The translations under genes were made by a program, and so were the position numbers. Positions 2,882 through 55,830 of a stretch of 64,000 bases of DNA are shown here, one piece after another (the stretch's first letter is position 1; every line of letters begins with the position of its first letter). The stretch comes from Patescibacteria group bacterium (lineage in GTDB: Bacteria > Patescibacteriota > Patescibacteriia > CAIXNZ01): NCBI GenBank assembly GCA_028714455.1, contig JAQTMG010000001.1:128568-192567 (forward strand), written 5' to 3'. The notes below the pieces were generated by a model that saw only the letters and a list, made by a program, of their open reading frames with translations, made no database searches and was not told where the DNA came from.

Positions 2882-3181
2882 TTAATAAAATTTAATAAAT
2901 TTATCCTTATTGCTTTTCGGAGAATTTATTTCTTTTAAATAAAATTTTAAACGTTTTTTCAGATATCTGCCGCCAGGACCTGTTTTCAAAAATTTTTCTC
3001 TCCTTATAGCATCTACTAAATTCAAGCCAGCTTCGTAGTAAATCAAATCAAATGGTCTCCTTGGCTTAGTCGATCTTGATTTACCTTCATTATGCTCCTT
3101 AAATCTTTTTTTTAAATCACCGGTATGTCCGATGTAAAAATTCTTATCCCTTTTACTTAAAAGTACATAGGTGTAGTACAT
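2882..3181 (-). CDS. GIY-YIG nuclease family protein (small, stand-alone)
   Basis: YTYVLLS...NFYIGHTGDLKKRFKEHN carries the GIY...YIG motifs and the conserved Arg/Glu. The product is 99 aa. Confidence 0.75.
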   Translation of the reverse strand: MYYTYVLLSKRDKNFYIGHTGDLKKRFKEHNEGKSRSTKPRRPFDLIYYEAGLNLVDAIRREKFLKTGPGGRYLKKRLKFYLKEINSPKSNKDKFIKFY

Positions 3182-3810: not shown

Positions 3811-3889
3811 TTTGAGCGGGTGACCCCGCACCACAGGGGTGCGGGGTCAGGCTGGATTCTCAACCTAATTCTTGTTTGAGCGGGTGACC
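3811..3889 (-). repeat. 15-nt direct duplication of the tRNA-Gly 3' end (tttgagcgggtgacc) enclosing a GC hairpin
   Basis: Identical 15-mers lie at 3811..3825 and 3875..3889. The hairpin ccccgcacc-acag-gggtgcgggg sits between them. This is att-site-like scar architecture. Confidence 0.5.
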
Positions 3890-3952
3890 GGATTCGAACC
3901 GGCGACCTTTTCCTTGGCAAGGAAACGTTCTAGCCAACTGAACTACACCCGC
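3879..3952 (-). tRNA. tRNA-Gly (anticodon GCC), CCA not encoded
   Basis: The reverse complement reads GCGGGTG-TAGTTCAGTTGGCTAGAACG-TTTCC-TTGCCAA-GGAAA-AGGTCGCCGGTTCGAATCCGGT-CACCCGC-T. Confidence 0.85.
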
Positions 3953-4140
3953 CCAGTTAAAAGTTTATGTGATAATGCGTTTAGGCGCGTTGTTTATTCG
4001 TAGCCTAACAATGCGGTTGGACTCAATTAAACACTAACTTTTAACTGGGCCCGCCCCAATATACAAGATATATATCACACTAACTTTTAACTGTGCACGC
4101 CCAGCCTTATTCATATTACACAAACTTATAACCGGGCCCG
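3953..4140. repeat. tRNA-Gly 5'-flank inverted-repeat element followed by about 3 degenerate 45-bp tandem copies (ctaacttttaactgggcccgcc-like)
   Basis: cccagttaaaagtt (3953..3966) pairs with aacttttaactggg (4034..4047). Degenerate copies follow at about 4029, 4077 and 4119. Confidence 0.45.
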
Positions 4141-24136: not shown

Positions 24137-24778
24137 TTAGATTATTAATACAATGCCTTGATCACCGTCCATTTTTATTTGAATCCGCTGCCCGTGTTTT
24201 ATCCTTTCAGTCGCATTGCCAGTCCCGACGATGCAGGGGATGTCAAACTCTCGAGCCAGGATGGCCGGGTGAGAAGCGGCACTGCCGTGATCAGTGATGA
24301 CGGCTTTGATCTTTTTGAAAAATGAAGCGTGCGACGGCTTTAAAAATTTAGTGACCAGAATCTGGCCATCAATTTTTTCCAGATTTTTTGCCTCGGGGTC
24401 CAAAAAAGCCTCGCCCATCATCTCGCCGCCATTTCCGATAATCCCAGTTAGAATTTTATCATCGTCTCCAGTAAGTGATTTGCGCCAGTCGACCTTCTGC
24501 CAATTTTCCAGTGCCGAACTTATCGCCTGATTCAAGTCGATGCCTCGCAAAAGAGAGCAGGCTACCAGTTGGACAAAAATTTGTCCATAAGACATTGCCT
24601 CATCGTTCTTGCTGCCATGCGGCCTGGCGCTTGGGTTTAAATTTTGATCGTGCGTTACATATTTTGCCGCATCACCAATTTCCGAAAGCAATATGTTTAA
24701 TCTAAATTCAATATCCTGACGGTCTTCGCCGACCATCAACTTTTTGATTTCTTCCGCGATATGATTTATTGAATCCAT
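24137..24778 (-). CDS. two-domain protein: MazG-like NTP-pyrophosphohydrolase-like N-terminus fused to a PEP-utilising-enzyme mobile (phosphohistidine) domain
   Basis: The C-terminus reads ITDHGSAASHPAILAREFDIPCIVG, which matches the PEP-utilisers' mobile domain. The N-terminus (EIGDAAKYVTHD...) is MazG-like. The longer ORF reaching 24892 extends into the 512-bp repeat, so the ATG at 24778 (MDSINH) is taken as the start. Confidence 0.55.
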   Translation of the reverse strand: MDSINHIAEEIKKLMVGEDRQDIEFRLNILLSEIGDAAKYVTHDQNLNPSARPHGSKNDEAMSYGQIFVQLVACSLLRGIDLNQAISSALENWQKVDWRKSLTGDDDKILTGIIGNGGEMMGEAFLDPEAKNLEKIDGQILVTKFLKPSHASFFKKIKAVITDHGSAASHPAILAREFDIPCIVGTGNATERIKHGQRIQIKMDGDQGIVLII

Positions 24779-25290
24779 TTGGGCGCTAGTGAACGACGTT
24801 AGAACTAAAAGGGGGGACGCGAGAATGAAAATGTTTGCTAAAGAGCACATGGCACCAGATCTGGAGAACATTAAATTTTTCTTCTCAGACACTCAAAATC
24901 ATTTCCACATTCCTGACCTTGAGAAAATAAAAGGGGGAACGTAAAATGTTTATAACTCCACGATTAGTAAGTCTACAAAATTTAATGCCACTGCCAATGC
25001 AGGTTCTTGTCAGATCTGCATTCAGGAGAATCTTCTTTAGTTTCTAGGTTTAGAATTGTCCTTCGATTGCTTTCGTTGGTGCAAAGATCGTTGCGATTCA
25101 GCGATCGCCTTGAAAAGGTTGACCAGATTAATCCCCATGTCCCAAGCTTCTTGATCGGAAAGCTCTATGTCCAGTTCTTTTTTGCAGATTTGTTTGAGTT
25201 CGTCTATGGCTTCTTGCGTTAGCCCCATATAAATCAATTATATTTGTCTAGGCGGTAAGATTCAATCTTAAGGATACATACTGTGGACAA
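24779..25290. repeat. tandem 512-bp element, copy 1
   Basis: Near-identical to 25291..25802. It begins with ttgggcgc. Confidence 0.85.
25037..25237 (-). CDS. repeat-encoded small ORF (66 aa), duplicated at 25549..25749
   Basis: The ORF is conserved in both copies. It has a non-ATG or internal start and no motif. Confidence 0.25.
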   Translation of the reverse strand: MIYMGLTQEAIDELKQICKKELDIELSDQEAWDMGINLVNLFKAIAESQRSLHQRKQSKDNSKPRN

Positions 25291-25802
25291 TTGGGCGCTA
25301 GTGAACGACGTTAGAACTAAAAGGGGGGACGCGAGAATGAAAATGTTTGCCAAAGAGCGCATGGCACCAGATCTGGAGAGCATTAAATTTTTCTTCTCAG
25401 ACACTCAAAATCATTTCCACATTCCTGACCTTGAGAAAACAAAAGGGGGAACGTAAAATGTTTATAACTCCACGATTAGTAAGTCTACAAAATTTAATGC
25501 CACTGCCAATGCAGGTTCTTGTCAGATCTGCATTCAGGAGAATCTTCTTTAGTTTCTAGGCTTAGAATTGTCCTTCGATTGCTTTTGTTGGTGCAAAGAT
25601 CGTTGCGATTCAGCGACCGCCTTGAAAAGGTTGACCAGATTAATCCCCATGTCCCAAGCTTCTTGATCGGAAAGCTCTATGTCCAGTTCTTTTTTGCAGA
25701 TTTGTTTGAGTTCGTCTATGGCTTCTTGCGTTAGCCCCATATAAATCAATTATATTTGTCTAGGCGGTAAGATTCAATCTTAAGGATACATACTGTGGAC
25801 AA
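25291..25802. repeat. tandem 512-bp element, copy 2
   Basis: Only a few mismatches against copy 1. It is followed directly by ttgggcgc, which starts the tRNA-Lys 3' fragment. Confidence 0.85.
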
Positions 25803-25803
25803 T

Positions 25804-25851
25804 TGGGCGCAGCAGGACTCGAACCTGCGACCGTTTGCTTAAGAGGCAACC
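25804..25851 (-). other. tRNA-Lys(CTT) 3'-half fragment (anticodon arm to acceptor 3' end), att-like remnant
   Basis: The reverse complement reads GGTTGCCTCTTAAGCAA-ACGGTC-GCAGGTTCGAGTCCTGC-TGCGCCC-A. The acceptor 5' strand and D arm are missing and replaced by GC-rich hairpins (25852..25880). Confidence 0.6.
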
Positions 25852-25894
25852 CCGAAGGGGCCCCCTTGGGGCTGCTCTACTAAAAACTAATAAG

Positions 25895-26194
25895 TTAATA
25901 TTTTTTAATTTTTATCGGCAATTTATCTTTTGGGGTATTTTTGATCAATTCGGTTATTTTTATTTTTTCCTGGTATCCATCGGGATGTTTCAGATAAAAT
26001 TCTCTTTTAAAAGCTAAATTTTTATCATTATAAATTTCGTAATACATTAAAACAAAAGGAATACGATATCGAGTTGACTTTACTTTTCCTTTATTATGAT
26101 ATTTCAATAACCTTTCTTGCGGCTTGCCAGAAGTACAGCCGATATAAAATTCATTATCTCTTAAACTTAATAGAAAGTAAACAAAGTATTCCAT
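25895..26194 (-). CDS. GIY-YIG nuclease family protein (paralog of 2882..3181)
   Basis: YFVYFLLS...EFYIGCT...KYHN. The start codon lies 2 nt after the tRNA-Lys 3' end. Confidence 0.7.
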   Translation of the reverse strand: MEYFVYFLLSLRDNEFYIGCTSGKPQERLLKYHNKGKVKSTRYRIPFVLMYYEIYNDKNLAFKREFYLKHPDGYQEKIKITELIKNTPKDKLPIKIKKY

Positions 26195-26195
26195 A

Positions 26196-26269
26196 TGACC
26201 CGGCTGGGATTCGAACCCAGGACCTATTGCTTAAGAGGCAACCGCTCTAGCCAACTGAGCTACCGGGTC
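26196..26269 (-). tRNA. tRNA-Lys (anticodon CTT)
   Basis: The reverse complement reads GACCCGG-TAGCTCAGTTGGCTAGAGC-GTTGC-CTCTTAA-GCAAT-AGGTC-CTGGGTTCGAATCCCAG-CCGGGTC-A. Confidence 0.85.
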
Positions 26270-26279
26270 TGATTCTTAT

Positions 26280-26353
26280 TGCACCCAGAAGGAGTCGAAC
26301 CCTCAACCTCTTGGTTCGAAGCCAAGCACTCTATCCAGTTGAGCTATGGGTGC
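26280..26353 (-). tRNA. tRNA-Arg (anticodon TCG)
   Basis: The reverse complement reads GCACCCA-TAGCTCAACTGGATAGAGT-CTTGG-CTTCGAA-CCAAG-...GGGTTCGACTCC...-TGGGTGC-A. Confidence 0.8.
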
Positions 26354-26521
26354 GCGTTTGAATTTAGCACTCCAGTTGCCTGCCCGCCGAAGCTTTAGCG
26401 CAGGCGGGAGCTATGGGTGCGCGTGATTTGCCTAAAGATATTGAAATTTTAACATAAAAAAGTTTTTTAGTCAATCTCGGCAAGTCGCAAAAACATTATT
26501 TTTCTGCTATAATAAAATAAA

Positions 26522-27091
26522 TTGATTGGGGGTATGATAATAACAACTTTAATTGTTCTACAATATATATTTTTCATAGGCACCCTGGCAATAATGGGCT
26601 ATCTGGCTTTCATTATGTTGAGTTTTAGAAACATGGTGCCGTACGTGCCGACTCCAAAGAGAATTATCTTGAAAATGATTGAGTTGGCGGGCATAAAACC
26701 ACACGAAAGAGTTTGTGATTTGGGATCGGGCACGGGCAGGATTGTTATTCAGATCGCTAAAGAGCATAAAGAAAATTTAGTGGTGGGTATTGAAAAATCT
26801 TTTTTTCTCCGGCTTTTCACGAGGATCAGATTACTTTTTCATCCATTTATAAATAGAAGGATCCAGATTATTAATCAGGATTTTTTTAATATGGAAATTT
26901 TTGATTTCGAAGTGATCTTTTGTTTCTTGACTTCCGAGGCGATGAGGCGACTAACTCCAAAATTTAATAATCTAAAATCTGGTGGCAGAGTTATCTCGTA
27001 TATGTTTCCGATTGAGAACGCCTCTGCTTTCCGAGAGATAACAGAAGCGGTTACGGCGAGCGACAATATATACGTCTATCAAAAAATATAA
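26522..27091 (+). CDS. class I SAM-dependent methyltransferase with an N-terminal TM helix
   Basis: Motif I VCDLGSGTGRIV and an N-terminal hydrophobic segment. Confidence 0.65.
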   Translation: MIGGMIITTLIVLQYIFFIGTLAIMGYLAFIMLSFRNMVPYVPTPKRIILKMIELAGIKPHERVCDLGSGTGRIVIQIAKEHKENLVVGIEKSFFLRLFTRIRLLFHPFINRRIQIINQDFFNMEIFDFEVIFCFLTSEAMRRLTPKFNNLKSGGRVISYMFPIENASAFREITEAVTASDNIYVYQKI

Positions 27092-33576: not shown

Positions 33577-36500
33577 ATGTCTAACAAAATTTCCTCTTCA
33601 AATTTTACTCCCAGCCAAAAACACAAAGAAAGAAAAATGTTTGGCAATTTCCAAACCGTCATGCAAGTGCCTGACTTGGTAGAGGTTCAAAAGGATTCAT
33701 ATGCCTGGTTTATCAAAGAAGGACTGCGCGAGCTCTTTGACGAAATATCACCAATGAAGGATTTTGGCGGCAGAAATTTAGAACTCTCTTTTAAAGATTA
33801 TTATCTTGATGAGGCAAAATTTGACGAGAGGACATCGAGAGAAAAAAATATTACTTTCGAAGCTCCTCTGCGCATAAAAGCCGCTCTAGTCAACAAAAAA
33901 GATAATAAGAAGAAAGAACAAGAAATATATTTGGGAGATTTTCCCCTCATGACAGATCGGGGCACTTTTATCATTAACGGCATTGAGAGAGCGGTTGTTT
34001 CTCAAATAATCAGATCGGCCGGCGTTTTTTTTACTTCTAATTATCTTAGAGGTAAAAGATTCTACGGCGCCAAAATTATTCCGAATCGAGGCGCCTGGCT
34101 CGAGATCGAGACCGATTCCAACAACGTCATGTGGGTCAAGATCGATCGCAAAAGAAAAGTCGCCATCACTTCTTTGCTGCGCGCCTTTGGCTTTGCTACC
34201 GATGAAGAGATTTTAAATCTTTTTAAGGATGTTGACAAGCATCCCTCAATTAAATACATTGCCAGCACTCTCTTAAAAGACGCTGCCAAAAATCAAGACG
34301 AAGGTCTCATCGAAATTTATAAAAGAATCAGGCCGGGTGATTTGGCCACCGCTGATAACGCCAAGTCGCTCATTGAATCAATGTTTTTCCGCTATGAGCG
34401 TTATGATTTGAGCAAGGTCGGTCGTTATAAAATAAATCAGCGCTTTAAATACAATATTCCCAACAATAAAGAGACCAGAATTTTGCGCCGAGAAGATTTG
34501 ATCGACGTAATCAAGGAAATAATTCGACTCAATATTACCCAGGATGAACCAGATGACGTGGATCATCTTGGCAACAGAAGAATTCGGGCGGTCGGTGAAT
34601 TGATTCAAAATAGATTTAGAATCGGGTTGGCTCGCATGGAGAGAATCGTGCGAGACAAAATGAGTACCATGGATCTAGATTCCATGACCCCCAGTCGCTT
34701 GGTGAACGCCAAGCCAGTTATGGGCGTGGTCAAAGAGTTTTTTATGTCCAGCCAGCTCTCGCAGTTTATGGATCAGACAAATCCATTGGCCGAGCTTGAA
34801 CATAAAAGAAGAATTTCGGCCATGGGTCCGGGCGGACTTTCTCGCGAGAGAGCCGGGTTTGAAGTTCGTGACGTGCACACAACTCACTATGGCAGAATCT
34901 GTCCGATCTCAACGCCAGAAGGCCCGAACATCGGCTTGGTCGGACATCTGGCTAGCTATGCCAAAGTCAATGAATATGGCTTCATTGAAACGCCTTATCG
35001 TGTCGTCGAAAGAATCGCCCTTGATGACATTAAAGATACTGACAATAAAAAAATATTAGTTAAAAAAGGACAAAAAATTGATAAAGATGCTGTAGATCTT
35101 TTGAGAAGCAAAAAAATAAATTTCAGCGCCAAGGCCAGAGCTACTGAAGAGATTGTCTATCTCAATGCTATTCAGGAAGAGCGTTCAATCACTACGGCTG
35201 CTACCACGCCTCTTGACGAAAAAGGTTACTTTATCGAAGAAAGGGCCGAGGTCAGAAAATTTGGCAAGCCCGACATCGCCAACGTCGATCAGGTTGACTA
35301 TATGGACGTGGCCTCCAATCAGATAATCAGCATTGCGACTTCGTGTATTCCGTTTTTGGAGCATGATGATGCCGTCAGAGCTTTAATGGGCAGCAATATG
35401 CAACGCCAGGCCGTTCCTTTGATTAGACCGGGTGCGGCGCTGGTCGGCACCGGCATTGAAAAGATAGCCGCATTTTATTCTGGCCACGCCGCCATTTGTC
35501 AGGCCAGCGGTAAAATTTCAAAAGTTGACGGCTCGGGCATCGAGGTCATGGAAGATAACGGTAAAATTAAATTTTACGATTTAAATAAATTTCAGCGCTC
35601 CAACGCTTCCACTTGTATCAACCAGCATCCGACTGTGGCTCTGGGAGAAAAAGTCAAGAAAGGGCAGGTAATGTCTGACGGTCCGTCTATTAACGAAGGT
35701 GAATTGGCGCTTGGTCAAAACGCGCTAGTTGCTTTCATGGCCTGGGGCGGTTATAACTACGAAGACGCTATTATTATTTCCGAGAGAGTCGTACAGAAAG
35801 ATTTTTTTACCTCTATTCATATAGAAAATTACCCAATTGAAGTCCGCGAGACGAAATTGGGCCCGGAAGTCATTACCGCCGACATCCCAAATATCGGCGA
35901 GGAAAAATTAAAGAATCTCGATGAAAATGGAATCATTAGAATCGGAGCCGAAGTGACTTCGGGCGATATTTTAGTTGGAAAAATTACGCCCAAGGGCGAG
36001 ACCGAACTCTCGGCCGAGGAAAAATTGCTTCGCGCCATCTTCGGCGAAAAGGCGCGCGACGTGAGAGACAGCTCTTTATATCTGGAACACGGCGATCACG
36101 GCAAAGTCATCGACATTAAAATATTTTCCCAGGAAAAAGGCGACAAGCTGCCGCCGGGCGTGACGCAGATGGTTCAAGTATCAGTGGCGGATTTGCGCAA
36201 AGTCCAGGTCGGAGACAAAATGGCCGGCCGACACGGCAACAAGGGTATTATTTCCAAGATAATGCCTATTGAAGACATGCCTTTTTTGGCAGACGGAACT
36301 CCAATCGATGTAATCTTGAGCCCGCTCGGCGTTGTGTCTCGTATGAATCTGGGTCAAATTCTTGAGACTCATCTGGGTTTAGCCGCTAAACGACTTGGTT
36401 TTAAGGTCGCGACTCCGGTTTTTTACGGCGTTTCCGAAGAAAAAATAAAAGAACTTTTAAAAGAAGCCGGCTACCCAGAGGACGGCAAACTTATACTTTA

Positions 36501-36954
36501 CGACGGCAGAAGCGGTGAGCCATTTGGTCAAAAAAGCACAGTCGGCTGGAAATATCTAATGAAACTTAATCACATGGTCGAGGACAAGATCCATCAGCGC
36601 TCAATTGGCCCTTATTCTTTGATCACGCAGCAGCCGCTCGGAGGCAAGGCGCAATTTGGCGGACAGAGATTCGGCGAAATGGAAGTTTGGGCGCTGGAGG
36701 CATATGGCGCGGCTCACACCTTGCAAGAAATTTTGACCATAAAATCTGACGACGTGCCGGGCAGAGCCAAAGCTTATGAATCCATAATCAAAGGCGAGCC
36801 GATTCGCAGAGTCAACATTCCCGAATCTTTTAACGTATTGATTAGAGAATTAAAGGGTTTATGTCTGGACGTGGAATTACTAAAGCAAGGCGAGCCAATT
36901 GATGACAACCAGAAAAAGTATTCTAAAGAAAAGAAAAAAGAGGAGAAGGACTAA
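33577..36954 (+). CDS. rpoB: DNA-directed RNA polymerase subunit beta
   Basis: Conserved rpoB blocks are present ([24 protein letters not shown], the rifampicin cluster region [13 protein letters not shown]). Confidence 0.95.
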
Positions 36955-55699: not shown

Positions 55700-55830
55700 T
55701 GGGCGAAAACCCTTCGGCGTAAAACGCCGTAGAGACGCGGTGCACCGCGTCTCTACATTATCGTCATATGATACATGACGTAGAGACGGGGTATACCCTG
55801 TCTCTACAACGACGATAATGTCTGTTTTCG
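55700..55830. repeat. nested palindromic element: gggcgaaaac...[P1 gtagagacgcggtgcaccgcgtctctac]-cattatcgtc-atatgatacat-gacg-[P2 gtagagacggggtataccctgtctctac]-aacgacgataatg...gttttcgcc
   Basis: Outer inverted arms (gggcgaaaac/gttttcgcc and cattatcgtc/gacgataatg) enclose two 28-bp perfect palindromes. P1 is identical to 21425..21452. Confidence 0.7.

Follow-up and report, generated by a model that had tools for sequence, protein, structure and literature searches.

Why should a nuclease gene begin one nucleotide behind a tRNA gene, and why should a damaged copy of the same tRNA follow it? The question is raised by a 64,000-nucleotide (nt) stretch of contig JAQTMG010000001.1 of a Patescibacteria group bacterium (the window), on whose minus strand tRNA-Arg(TCG), tRNA-Lys(CTT), a small GIY-YIG gene and a partial tRNA-Lys lie head to tail. 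We regard it as probable that the GIY-YIG open reading frame (ORF), the partial tRNA-Lys, which is interrupted by a hairpin, and the intact tRNA-Lys together make up a selfish, homing-type cassette of ~0.4 kb that is expressed from the tRNA precursor. By comparison with otherwise syntenic genomes, the cassette is an insertion. Judged in the same way, it is gained or lost among near-identical hosts, decays, and duplicates in tandem (L018); and as aligned, the ORF always has one intact tRNA directly against it and, beyond its other end, a partial copy of that tRNA. The comparative data exclude a chance origin of the observed arrangement. Coordinates are positions within the window; L001, L002 and so on are labels of related loci.

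Anatomy of the tRNA-Arg/tRNA-Lys/GIY-YIG array

The following features make up the locus.

26446..26474, minus strand: promoter-like site TTGACT-17 nt-TAAAAT with TG before the -10 hexamer, ahead of the whole tRNA/ORF array; by consensus match only, the sole sigma-70-like site upstream of the GIY-YIG ATG on this strand
26367..26424, minus strand: pseudo-tRNA-Arg 5' piece with hairpin (17-nt exact repeat; fold)
26280..26353, minus strand: tRNA-Arg(TCG) without CCA (ARAGORN; Rfam, 68.0 bits)
26196..26269, minus strand: intact tRNA-Lys(CTT) without CCA (ARAGORN; Rfam, 73.6 bits; the fold recovers the cloverleaf, with the AUG region unpaired)
25895..26194, minus strand: 99-amino-acid (aa) Slx1-like/UPF0213 GIY-YIG gene (Pfam, PDB profile search, structure model, Foldseek, substitution rates)
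25804..25880, minus strand: pseudo-tRNA-Lys, another allele than the intact gene (repeat comparison; Rfam, 25.8 bits)
25850..25871, no strand assigned: 22-nt GC-rich insert CCCCAAGGGGGCCCCTTCGGGG, a palindromic double hairpin placed between tRNA positions 26 and 27

ARAGORN and Rfam agreed on the two tRNA genes (the Rfam gathering score being 29), which are separated by a 10-nt spacer (26279..26270) and neither of which encodes CCA. It may be noted that encoded CCA is absent from three of the four tRNA genes of the window. A single T (26195) stands between the discriminator A of tRNA-Lys (26196) and the GIY-YIG ATG (26194). The order tRNA-Arg, tRNA-Lys, GIY-YIG ORF and tRNA-Lys 3' piece, which the original prediction had read from the letters alone, is therefore real according to ARAGORN, Rfam and Pfam, with gaps of 10 nt and 1 nt. 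Rfam detected tRNAs only, and no intron or known small RNA, in permissive searches of the locus and its relatives and at the gathering score over the window.

The start codon of the ORF was considered next to the tRNA. An in-frame TAA lies within the anticodon loop of tRNA-Lys, and the ATG at 26194 is the first start codon thereafter. The next Met is M50, and a start there would delete both the GIY and the YIG motif. The N-terminus MEYFVYF forms the first strand of the GIY-YIG domain in all homologues. Because of the TAA in the anticodon loop and this conserved N-terminus, an alternative start is impossible.

Downstream of the ORF, 14 nt separate the stop codon from GTAGAGCAG, a remnant of the D stem (25880..25872). 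The 22-nt insert follows (25871..25850), and the remainder (25849..25804) comprises the anticodon arm, the variable region, the T arm and the acceptor 3' strand plus A. The piece has no 5' acceptor strand; Rfam scored 25863..25804 below the gathering score. The last 48 nt (25851..25804) have the same anticodon arm as the intact tRNA-Lys but another T arm and acceptor strand. Those 48 nt had been taken earlier for the whole fragment. That it is the 3' part of a different tRNA-Lys allele holds; its length was underestimated, since the copy runs from 25880 to 25804 and includes the hairpin insert.

A second damaged tRNA, absent from the original prediction, lies upstream of tRNA-Arg. Positions 26424..26408 exactly repeat the 17 nt at 26357..26341 (4 nt of the tRNA-Arg leader and tRNA nt 1-13); a 29-nt GC hairpin insert (26407..26379) comes after them, followed by a D-loop/D-stem remnant that extends to 26367. 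The piece folds at -26.6 kcal/mol (z -2.6), and its hairpin type, CCCGCC...GGCGGGCAGG, is also present in relatives.

Directly downstream of the array is a 512-bp tandem duplication (units 25802..25291 and 25290..24779, within 24779-25810), whose start coincides exactly with the final 8 nt of the tRNA-Lys fragment. It is bounded by three copies of GCGCCCAA (25810..25803, 25298..25291 and 24786..24779), the first being the 3' end of the fragment and the last lying inside a PEP-utilizer gene (24892..24137). A 66-aa ORF and the 5' end of the PEP-utilizer gene are copied at 98% identity.

A minimal Slx1-like GIY-YIG protein

The 99-aa protein matched the Pfam GIY-YIG family PF01541 with an E-value of 2e-10 (41.3 bits; cut-off 22.6); NCBIfam and PHROGs gave no match for it. 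When the family profile was run against the PDB, the hits were 1zg2 (1.4e-9) and 1ywl (9.9e-9), both UPF0213 structures solved by nuclear magnetic resonance, and Slx1 (4e-3). The AlphaFold2 model (pLDDT 96.5) has an alpha/beta fold with a three-stranded sheet. Foldseek placed 1zg2 first, then Slx1 (6seh/6sei; root-mean-square deviation 2.4-2.7 Å, 26-30% identity) and then I-TevI (1ln0), all with E-values of 1e-3 or weaker.

Residues Y6, Y17-I18-G19, R28, H33 and E65 are invariant or nearly so in 19 aligned sequences, and by analogy with I-TevI we take Y6, Y17, R28, H33 and E65 to have the catalytic roles. No invariant Asn follows E65 in these 19 sequences, and so the C-terminal Asn of the UvrC/I-TevI lineage is absent. 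The catalytic domain and a short basic tail fill all 99 aa. The ratio of nonsynonymous to synonymous substitution among orthologues is 0.05-0.25. On these comparisons the protein is a minimal Slx1-like/UPF0213 GIY-YIG nuclease, its catalytic residues intact and under purifying selection. It shares family and fold, as a stand-alone minimal domain without the C-terminal Asn, with the UPF0213/prokaryotic Slx1-like proteins, represented by BH0048 (1zg2) and EF2693 (1ywl) (Dunin-Horkawicz et al. 2006, PMC1564403). A profile search found 13,717 cluster representatives of the family at E ≤1e-3, not all of them shown to be tRNA-linked, and 2,944 at ≤1e-10.

The window has a second GIY-YIG gene at 2882-3181 (minus strand), 44% identical to the first (Pfam E-value 9e-16). 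Its supposed adjacency to a tRNA is correct in so far as 140 nt separate the gene (3181..2882) from tRNA-Leu downstream of it. Gene and tRNA are not fused, and the gene has promoter-like hexamers of its own; neither a pseudo-tRNA nor a twin hairpin was seen beside it.

Filled and empty tRNA-Lys loci in relatives

Close homologues of the GIY-YIG protein (66-86% identical) share the synteny of the window: TrmB, a DOT1-like methyltransferase, (a CDP-alcohol phosphatidyltransferase and CarS), tRNA-Arg, tRNA-Lys, GIY-YIG, pseudo-tRNA-Lys and DUF2238. Such filled loci are L001, L002, L003, L004, L085 and L086. A search with DUF2238 returned five empty loci (L087-L091), in which the synteny is the same and the nuclease gene is missing. 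When an empty locus was aligned with two filled ones, a clean insertion of 410-505 nt appeared between the 3' end of tRNA-Lys and the ATG of DUF2238, in which the ORF is followed by a spacer and by a pseudo-tRNA-Lys (positions 8-74) that bears hairpin inserts. A metagenome scan with the neighbouring methyltransferase yielded one short contig, which does not reach the tRNA region.

The empty loci also show what preceded the insertion. In L087, DUF2238 starts 2 nt after the tRNA-Lys discriminator (CCGGGTCAatATG, 2435-2441); in L089 and L090 (2444-2450) its ATG overlaps the encoded CCA of tRNA-Lys (ACCATG). By this alignment and these junctions, the tRNA-to-ATG junction originally belonged to the host gene DUF2238, and the cassette entered that junction and duplicated it. 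Gene callers set the DUF2238 start ~60 nt too far downstream in L087, L089 and L090.

The earlier proposal of an insertion into the tRNA-Lys locus thus gains the support of syntenic relatives with and without the ORF and pseudo-tRNA-Lys, of two alleles within the locus, and of an architecture that recurs at more than 30 loci. It had been added that tRNA fragments without GIY-YIG in related genomes would count against the proposal. In part this is so: hairpin-bearing tRNA pieces do occur without it, among them 5' pieces of tRNA-Lys that lie upstream of tRNA-Lys in the empty loci L087 and L090; a tRNA-Lys 3' pseudo-copy was seen at none of the five empty loci L087-L091, where the tRNA-Lys/DUF2238 junction is clean.

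The tRNA-Lys fragment of the window matches the tRNA-Lys of L090 (score 43 of 48), and the intact tRNA-Lys matches other relatives. Being different alleles, the two have separate origins. The start of the fragment and the hairpin position 26/27 are common to the window and L004, and the insert sequences are similar. Under the simplest history the cassette would be old, and a later exchange with another lineage would have replaced its tRNA-Arg/tRNA-Lys segment by the other allele, so that of the former segment a tRNA-Arg 5' piece and a tRNA-Lys 3' piece remained as boundaries. L089 is itself a mosaic: the genes left of its tRNA cluster are L001-like (83-84% aa identity), and DUF2238 on the right is L002-like (75%, vs 54% to L001). 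The mosaic points to recombination with a breakpoint at the tRNA cluster, and it shows that such exchanges happen. At least four stem-compensated alleles of tRNA-Lys(CTT) are present among the relatives.

Three states of the Pedobacter tRNA-Ser(GGA) site

Presence/absence polymorphism at one conserved site was found for the Lys locus and also for tRNA-Ser(GGA) of Pedobacter. Here an identical pyruvate kinase protein is followed by the tRNA-Ser site in three states: empty (L092, L094, L096); filled, with a hairpin-bearing 5' piece, the ORF and the intact tRNA (L093, L098, L099, L100, L030); and decayed, with the hairpin-bearing piece, only the last third of the ORF, and the tRNA (L095). The flank upstream of the empty tRNA-Ser is the flank upstream of the pseudo-piece. 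Read from these loci, empty, filled and decayed sites are the three stages expected of a homing-type element. A further decay product is seen in L085 (1960-2025), where a 9-nt stub of the nuclease ORF, ATGGAAAAT, directly follows the real tRNA-Lys and precedes the pseudo 3' end and the real ORF. Isolate genomes with the architecture include Pedobacter sp. Leaf41, P. roseus and P. agri.

Linkage of the family to tRNA genes

A scan of a genome collection gave 80 loci, from Patescibacteria, Bacteroidota, Calditrichota and others. For 87 ORFs outside the window's own lineage we counted neighbouring tRNA genes and took the expectation from the tRNA density of the same loci. A same-strand tRNA was present within 100 nt of 51 of the 87 ORFs (0.7 expected; p about 1e-82), and abutted within 5 nt in 27; an opposite-strand tRNA lay within 100 nt of only one. 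Where the tRNA is downstream, the stop codon falls 0-5 nt ahead of it or inside its first 15-22 nt. Where it is upstream, the start codon may fall 0-2 nt after it, an arrangement that recurs after intact tRNA-Lys, tRNA-Cys and tRNA-Ile, with ATG in four loci (the window, at 1 nt, L001, L004 and L020); L071 has GTG, and its start is uncertain.

At more than 30 loci the opposite flank of the ORF holds a partial copy of the same tRNA, as a 5' piece if the tRNA is downstream of the ORF and as a 3' piece if it is upstream. At least ten identities are involved (Ser, Ala, Glu, Cys, Gln, Lys, Leu, Ile, Trp, Tyr), and the clades of the nuclease track tRNA identity and side. As an intact tRNA is kept beside the partial copy, tRNA function is never lost. 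Several copies may occur in one genome, some of them in tandem (two in the window; also L018, L067 and L075, with the tandem in L018).

Twin-hairpin inserts in partial tRNA copies

The partial tRNA copies usually carry clean insertions of ~22 nt that consist of two adjacent 4-bp GC stems, no tRNA bases being lost; GCCCGAAGGGC TCCCTTTGGGA and CCGCGTAGCGG TGCCTACGGCA are examples. The first loop is GAA, AAA or GTA and the second TTT, TTC or TAC; the stems covary and the loops are kept. The 22-nt insert of the window is likewise clean, and together with its flanks it folds as a 13-bp hairpin on either strand. Other inserts are perfect palindromes of 30 nt, e.g. TCTGGCTACGCCAGA TCTGGCGTAGCCAGA. 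Since the twin-hairpin module is alike on both strands and occurs in inverse order in one locus, a DNA-level rather than an RNA-level constraint seems indicated.

There were 55 twin hairpins in 386 kb of loci, vs about 1 in shuffled sequence, and 42 of the 55 lay within 150 nt of an end of the nuclease ORF, where 3.7 were expected (more than 10-fold enrichment). A scan of the 64-kb window detected no other twin hairpin of the insert type. Orthologous pseudo-tRNA-Lys copies hold one insert (window, L004, L003), two (L001) or four (L085, 2340-2500), at positions 14/15, 26/27, 43/44 and 65/66; the inserts therefore accumulate over time.

Three other accounts of the hairpins were considered and set aside. 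As a genome-wide hairpin repeat they fail: the three matches in the window were a terminator, a site in a long ORF (33577..36954) and an unrelated hairpin pair. If the hairpin were a lock against deletion, recombination across the repeat would leave a dead tRNA; L030, L001 and the window agree with this idea, L003, L018 and L008 do not. Nor do the hairpins mark a single cleavage site, as their positions vary (9-22, 26/27, 30-36, 43/44, 64-66, 72/73).

Related structures were observed near other tRNA genes of the window. A solo pseudo 3' end lies ~29 nt past tRNA-Gly(GCC) (3813-3848, minus strand), with the nuclease ORF absent between them; it has a 10-bp GC hairpin, GACCCCGCAC...GTGCGGGGTC, in place of the T arm, and then the acceptor 3' strand ACCCGCTCA. 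Elements of ~100 nt with 15-20-nt inverted repeats at their ends lie directly upstream of tRNA-Gly (3951-4050) and tRNA-Leu (2739-2839), both on the minus strand; they share CATAAACTTYTAACKGGG, and the first 2-3 nt of the tRNA belong to the 3' arm as well. In relatives, elements of ~100 nt occur between tRNA-Arg and tRNA-Lys (L001 2620-2725; L003 2563-2665 and 2696-2797; L085 1763-1853; L087 2220-2315; L090 2098-2195 and 2235-2330). These open with a tRNA-Lys 5' end, continue with the CCCGCC...GGCGGGCAGG hairpin and close with CCAGCTTCGCTACCGA, which can pair with the head. A locus has 0-2 copies, nuclease-free loci included (the empty L087 and L090), and the window has the head only, fused to the tRNA-Arg 5' piece. 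The ~100-nt elements matched no Rfam family.

Probable expression from the tRNA precursor

No promoter-like site was found between the array promoter (26474..26446) and the GIY-YIG ATG, and no terminator-like site across 25400..26700. With the sole promoter-like site ahead of the whole array, co-transcription of the ORF with the tRNAs, as originally predicted, is supported by inference. The companion argument, that the junction leaves no room for a promoter or a Shine-Dalgarno (SD) sequence, is weakened in its second half: an SD-like motif precedes only ~11 of the 43 long ORFs of the window, most starts following A/T-rich sequence, so that its absence is normal in this genome.

The cassette would accordingly be promoterless and transcribed from 26474..26446 within the tRNA-Arg/tRNA-Lys precursor. 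tRNAs that lack an encoded CCA need a cut after the discriminator in order to mature, and in Bacillus subtilis RNase Z makes it. A cut of this type after A26196 would free an mRNA with a 1-nt leader (5'-U-AUG), to be translated as a leaderless message, and the structured pseudo-tRNA and hairpin at its 3' end may stabilise it. In the predicted fold the tRNA-Lys cloverleaf is recovered, and the AUG and first ~10 nt are unpaired. The route is credible because the host gene DUF2238 has a nearly identical tRNA junction at the empty sites, 2 nt after tRNA-Lys or overlapping CCA (L087, L089, L090); the recurrence of starts 0-2 nt after intact tRNAs for Lys, Cys and Ile also favours it.

The same element may be expressed in another way, by SD-independent internal initiation on a precursor that is unprocessed or cleaved in some other way, with a stable tRNA or hairpin just upstream that keeps an A/U-rich start open, and not from a leaderless mRNA made by RNase Z. 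We consider this version, taken as a whole, a serious possibility though not the one we would choose. SD-independent starts are the norm in the window, and the unpaired AUG suits them as well. The ATG follows a real tRNA in the window, L001 and L004, but in L002, L003 and L085 it follows a hairpin and an acceptor 3' strand; with no 5' acceptor strand, an acceptor stem is impossible there, and the piece should not be an RNase Z substrate. Where the tRNA is downstream and the stop codon lies 0-5 nt ahead of it or inside it, translation must precede the RNase P cut, which would take away the stop codon or fall right beside it. Yet a ribosome at an AUG 1 nt past a folded acceptor stem must accommodate or unfold the tRNA, and the cut that matures a CCA-less tRNA, as made by RNase Z in Bacillus subtilis, necessarily yields a leaderless RNA. 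Between a leaderless mRNA released by tRNA processing and SD-independent initiation on other RNA species, both plausible from the sequence comparisons, the balance appears roughly even.

Proposed mobility and alternative explanations

We infer co-transcription, processing, leaderless translation and nuclease-driven mobility from the arrangement of the loci. In the mobile cassette that we favour, the nuclease would cut DNA in a tRNA gene or at cruciform-prone hairpins, and the break would lead to copying of the cassette by recombination through tRNA homology. Structure-specific action on the cruciform-prone hairpins, as of Slx1 on branched DNA, would by that analogy be an attractive alternative. 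The cassette would work like a homing element; it is not classed with the classical homing endonucleases because the 99 aa include no DNA-binding module.

Several findings weigh against a homing cassette expressed by tRNA processing. No DNA-binding module of the kind present in I-TevI or SegB was found in the 99 aa. Divergence of the nuclease among the Lys-locus orthologues (66-86% aa identity) is about that of the flanking host genes (50-90%), which would fit long vertical residence with occasional loss as well as repeated homing. Often, as in L003 and L004, the pseudo-copy does not differ from the intact tRNA beside the ORF, and with identical copies immunity through destruction of the target on insertion is not evident. 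Hairpin-bearing tRNA fragments without the ORF exist, namely the tRNA-Gly piece (3848..3813) and tRNA-Arg pieces in L001, L087 and L089. No relatives were found in IMG/VR, among INPHARED phages or among PLSDB plasmids, so a phage or plasmid vector is not supported. Finally, L002, L003 and L085 argue, by the structure of their junctions, against tRNA 3' processing being required for expression.

Some of these points would suit a housekeeping gene: an Slx1-like repair nuclease placed in tRNA operons for constitutive low expression, the fragments and hairpins being by-products of duplication or slippage at highly transcribed, structure-prone tRNA DNA. The nuclease is under purifying selection, the synteny is conserved, divergence is comparable to that of neighbouring genes, and the microhomology-mediated 512-bp tandem duplication at the 3' end of the fragment marks the region as slippage-prone. 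Prokaryotic Slx1-like proteins have been treated as putative repair nucleases that are vertically inherited, in a study silent on tRNA linkage, partial tRNAs and hairpins (PMC1564403). We nevertheless find this explanation unlikely. It does not account for a three-part architecture beside at least ten tRNA identities in several phyla, for clean empty sites in close relatives and a truncated copy in Pedobacter, for multiple and tandem copies per genome, for two tRNA-Lys alleles within one locus, or for conserved twin-hairpin modules far beyond chance.

A duplicated tRNA gene 3' part is the classical mark of integrative elements, and the regions downstream of the Pedobacter tRNA-Ser vary between strains, so the fragment might be read as the attL/attR scar of an integrase-type island or prophage, with the GIY-YIG gene as cargo or coincidental. 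This is very improbable: the unit has no integrase and no tyrosine or serine recombinase, the tRNA copies are only ~330-400 nt apart with the 99-aa ORF alone between them, in many loci it is the 5' part, not the 3' part, that is present twice, and the pseudo-copies begin inside the tRNA and carry inserts. Least probable of all is that a group I intron and its homing endonuclease once occupied a tRNA gene and left the arrangement as a relic, or else that it is an assembly artefact. Group I introns do reside in bacterial tRNA genes, according to one report (PMC3984707), and in NCBIfam the paralogue matched 'group I intron endonuclease' weakly, below the threshold. But the tRNA is intact and uninterrupted, Rfam found no ribozyme (locally up to E 10; window and relatives at the gathering score), and the architecture recurs in many independent assemblies, those of the Pedobacter isolates included. 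By its sequence, then, the unit belongs neither to the integrase islands nor to the group I introns, nor does it encode a classical homing endonuclease of several domains.

Comparison with known systems

Closest in logic to the cassette is SegB of phage T4. It is a free-standing GIY-YIG homing endonuclease in the phage's tRNA gene cluster, whose target includes a conserved tRNA T-loop motif and which drives the inheritance of itself and of flanking tRNA genes (PMC2330249). As in the window, a GIY-YIG gene lies among tRNA genes and is present or absent among relatives. SegB is much larger than a 99-aa catalytic domain. It is phage-borne and of the I-TevI/UvrC lineage, whereas the window protein is Slx1-like and chromosomal, and it has neither a partial tRNA duplication nor hairpin inserts.

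For Allomyces mitochondria, Paquin et al. reportedly described in 1994 and 2000 a mobile GIY-YIG ORF in atp6 that brought a replacement end for the gene, the displaced resident end being left as a pseudo-fragment. The ORF is said to be fused in frame, and double-hairpin elements are said to be present in the same genomes. That case concerns a protein-coding target in fungal mitochondria; the window type concerns tRNA genes of bacteria. Mitochondrial double-hairpin elements (DHEs) are short, GC-rich and thought to be mobile (PMC10085805). The inserts of the window type, 22-30 nt long and inside pseudo-copies, are likened to them by description, and they share with them adjacent short GC-rich hairpin pairs, multiple copies and insertion polymorphism.

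In REP/RAYT systems and hairpin-guided IS200/IS605 elements, a small nuclease gene is likewise flanked by short GC-rich palindromes that multiply locally. Their enzymes are HUH/Y1, vs GIY-YIG here, and REPs are genome-wide and extragenic, whereas the hairpins of the window type were found, across the 64 kb of the window, in tRNA pseudo-copies only. An mRNA that starts directly after a tRNA also recalls the tRNA punctuation of mitochondrial transcripts and the action of RNase Z on CCA-less tRNAs. In bacteria, however, tRNA punctuation is no recognised general route to mRNA 5' ends, and some orthologues have no processable tRNA before the ATG.

Full-text literature searches, with most subscription journals outside their scope, returned no description of a unit of ORF, partial tRNA and twin hairpin; prior work may exist. 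We put forward, as a tentative generalisation that we hold with less than even confidence, that Slx1-like GIY-YIG genes and 22-30-bp double-hairpin inserts form a widespread, undescribed class of minimal mobile elements, parasites of the tRNA genes of Patescibacteria, Bacteroidota and other phyla. Such elements would have a nuclease that is structure-specific, with the hairpins or tRNA-gene DNA as substrate, and not a homing enzyme of sequence specificity; they would always bring a spare tRNA piece, by which the host gene survives, and would do without a promoter or ribosome-binding site of their own, their mRNA being supplied by transcription and end-processing of the tRNA; the pairing of GIY-YIG genes and DHEs in mitochondria would be the same partnership, inherited or convergent.

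If the cassette reading is correct, a large family that is annotated 'GIY-YIG nuclease family protein' and deemed to consist of repair enzymes would become one that is frequently selfish and tRNA-linked. A mobile element could then occupy an essential gene without intron or intein, by bringing a replacement piece of the gene. There would be a bacterial instance of tRNA-punctuated mRNA, apparently also for the host gene DUF2238 in these genomes. In the streamlined genomes of Patescibacteria, tRNA annotation is confused by pieces of pseudo-tRNA and by odd GC-rich hairpins, and these would also be explained.

Other hairpins in the window

Far from the array, an intergenic region has, past a terminator-like hairpin, a pair of long GC-rich hairpins that are related to each other, GTAGAGACGCGGTGCACCGCGTCTCTAC and GTAGAGACGGGGTATACCCTGTCTCTAC (55715-55830, plus strand).

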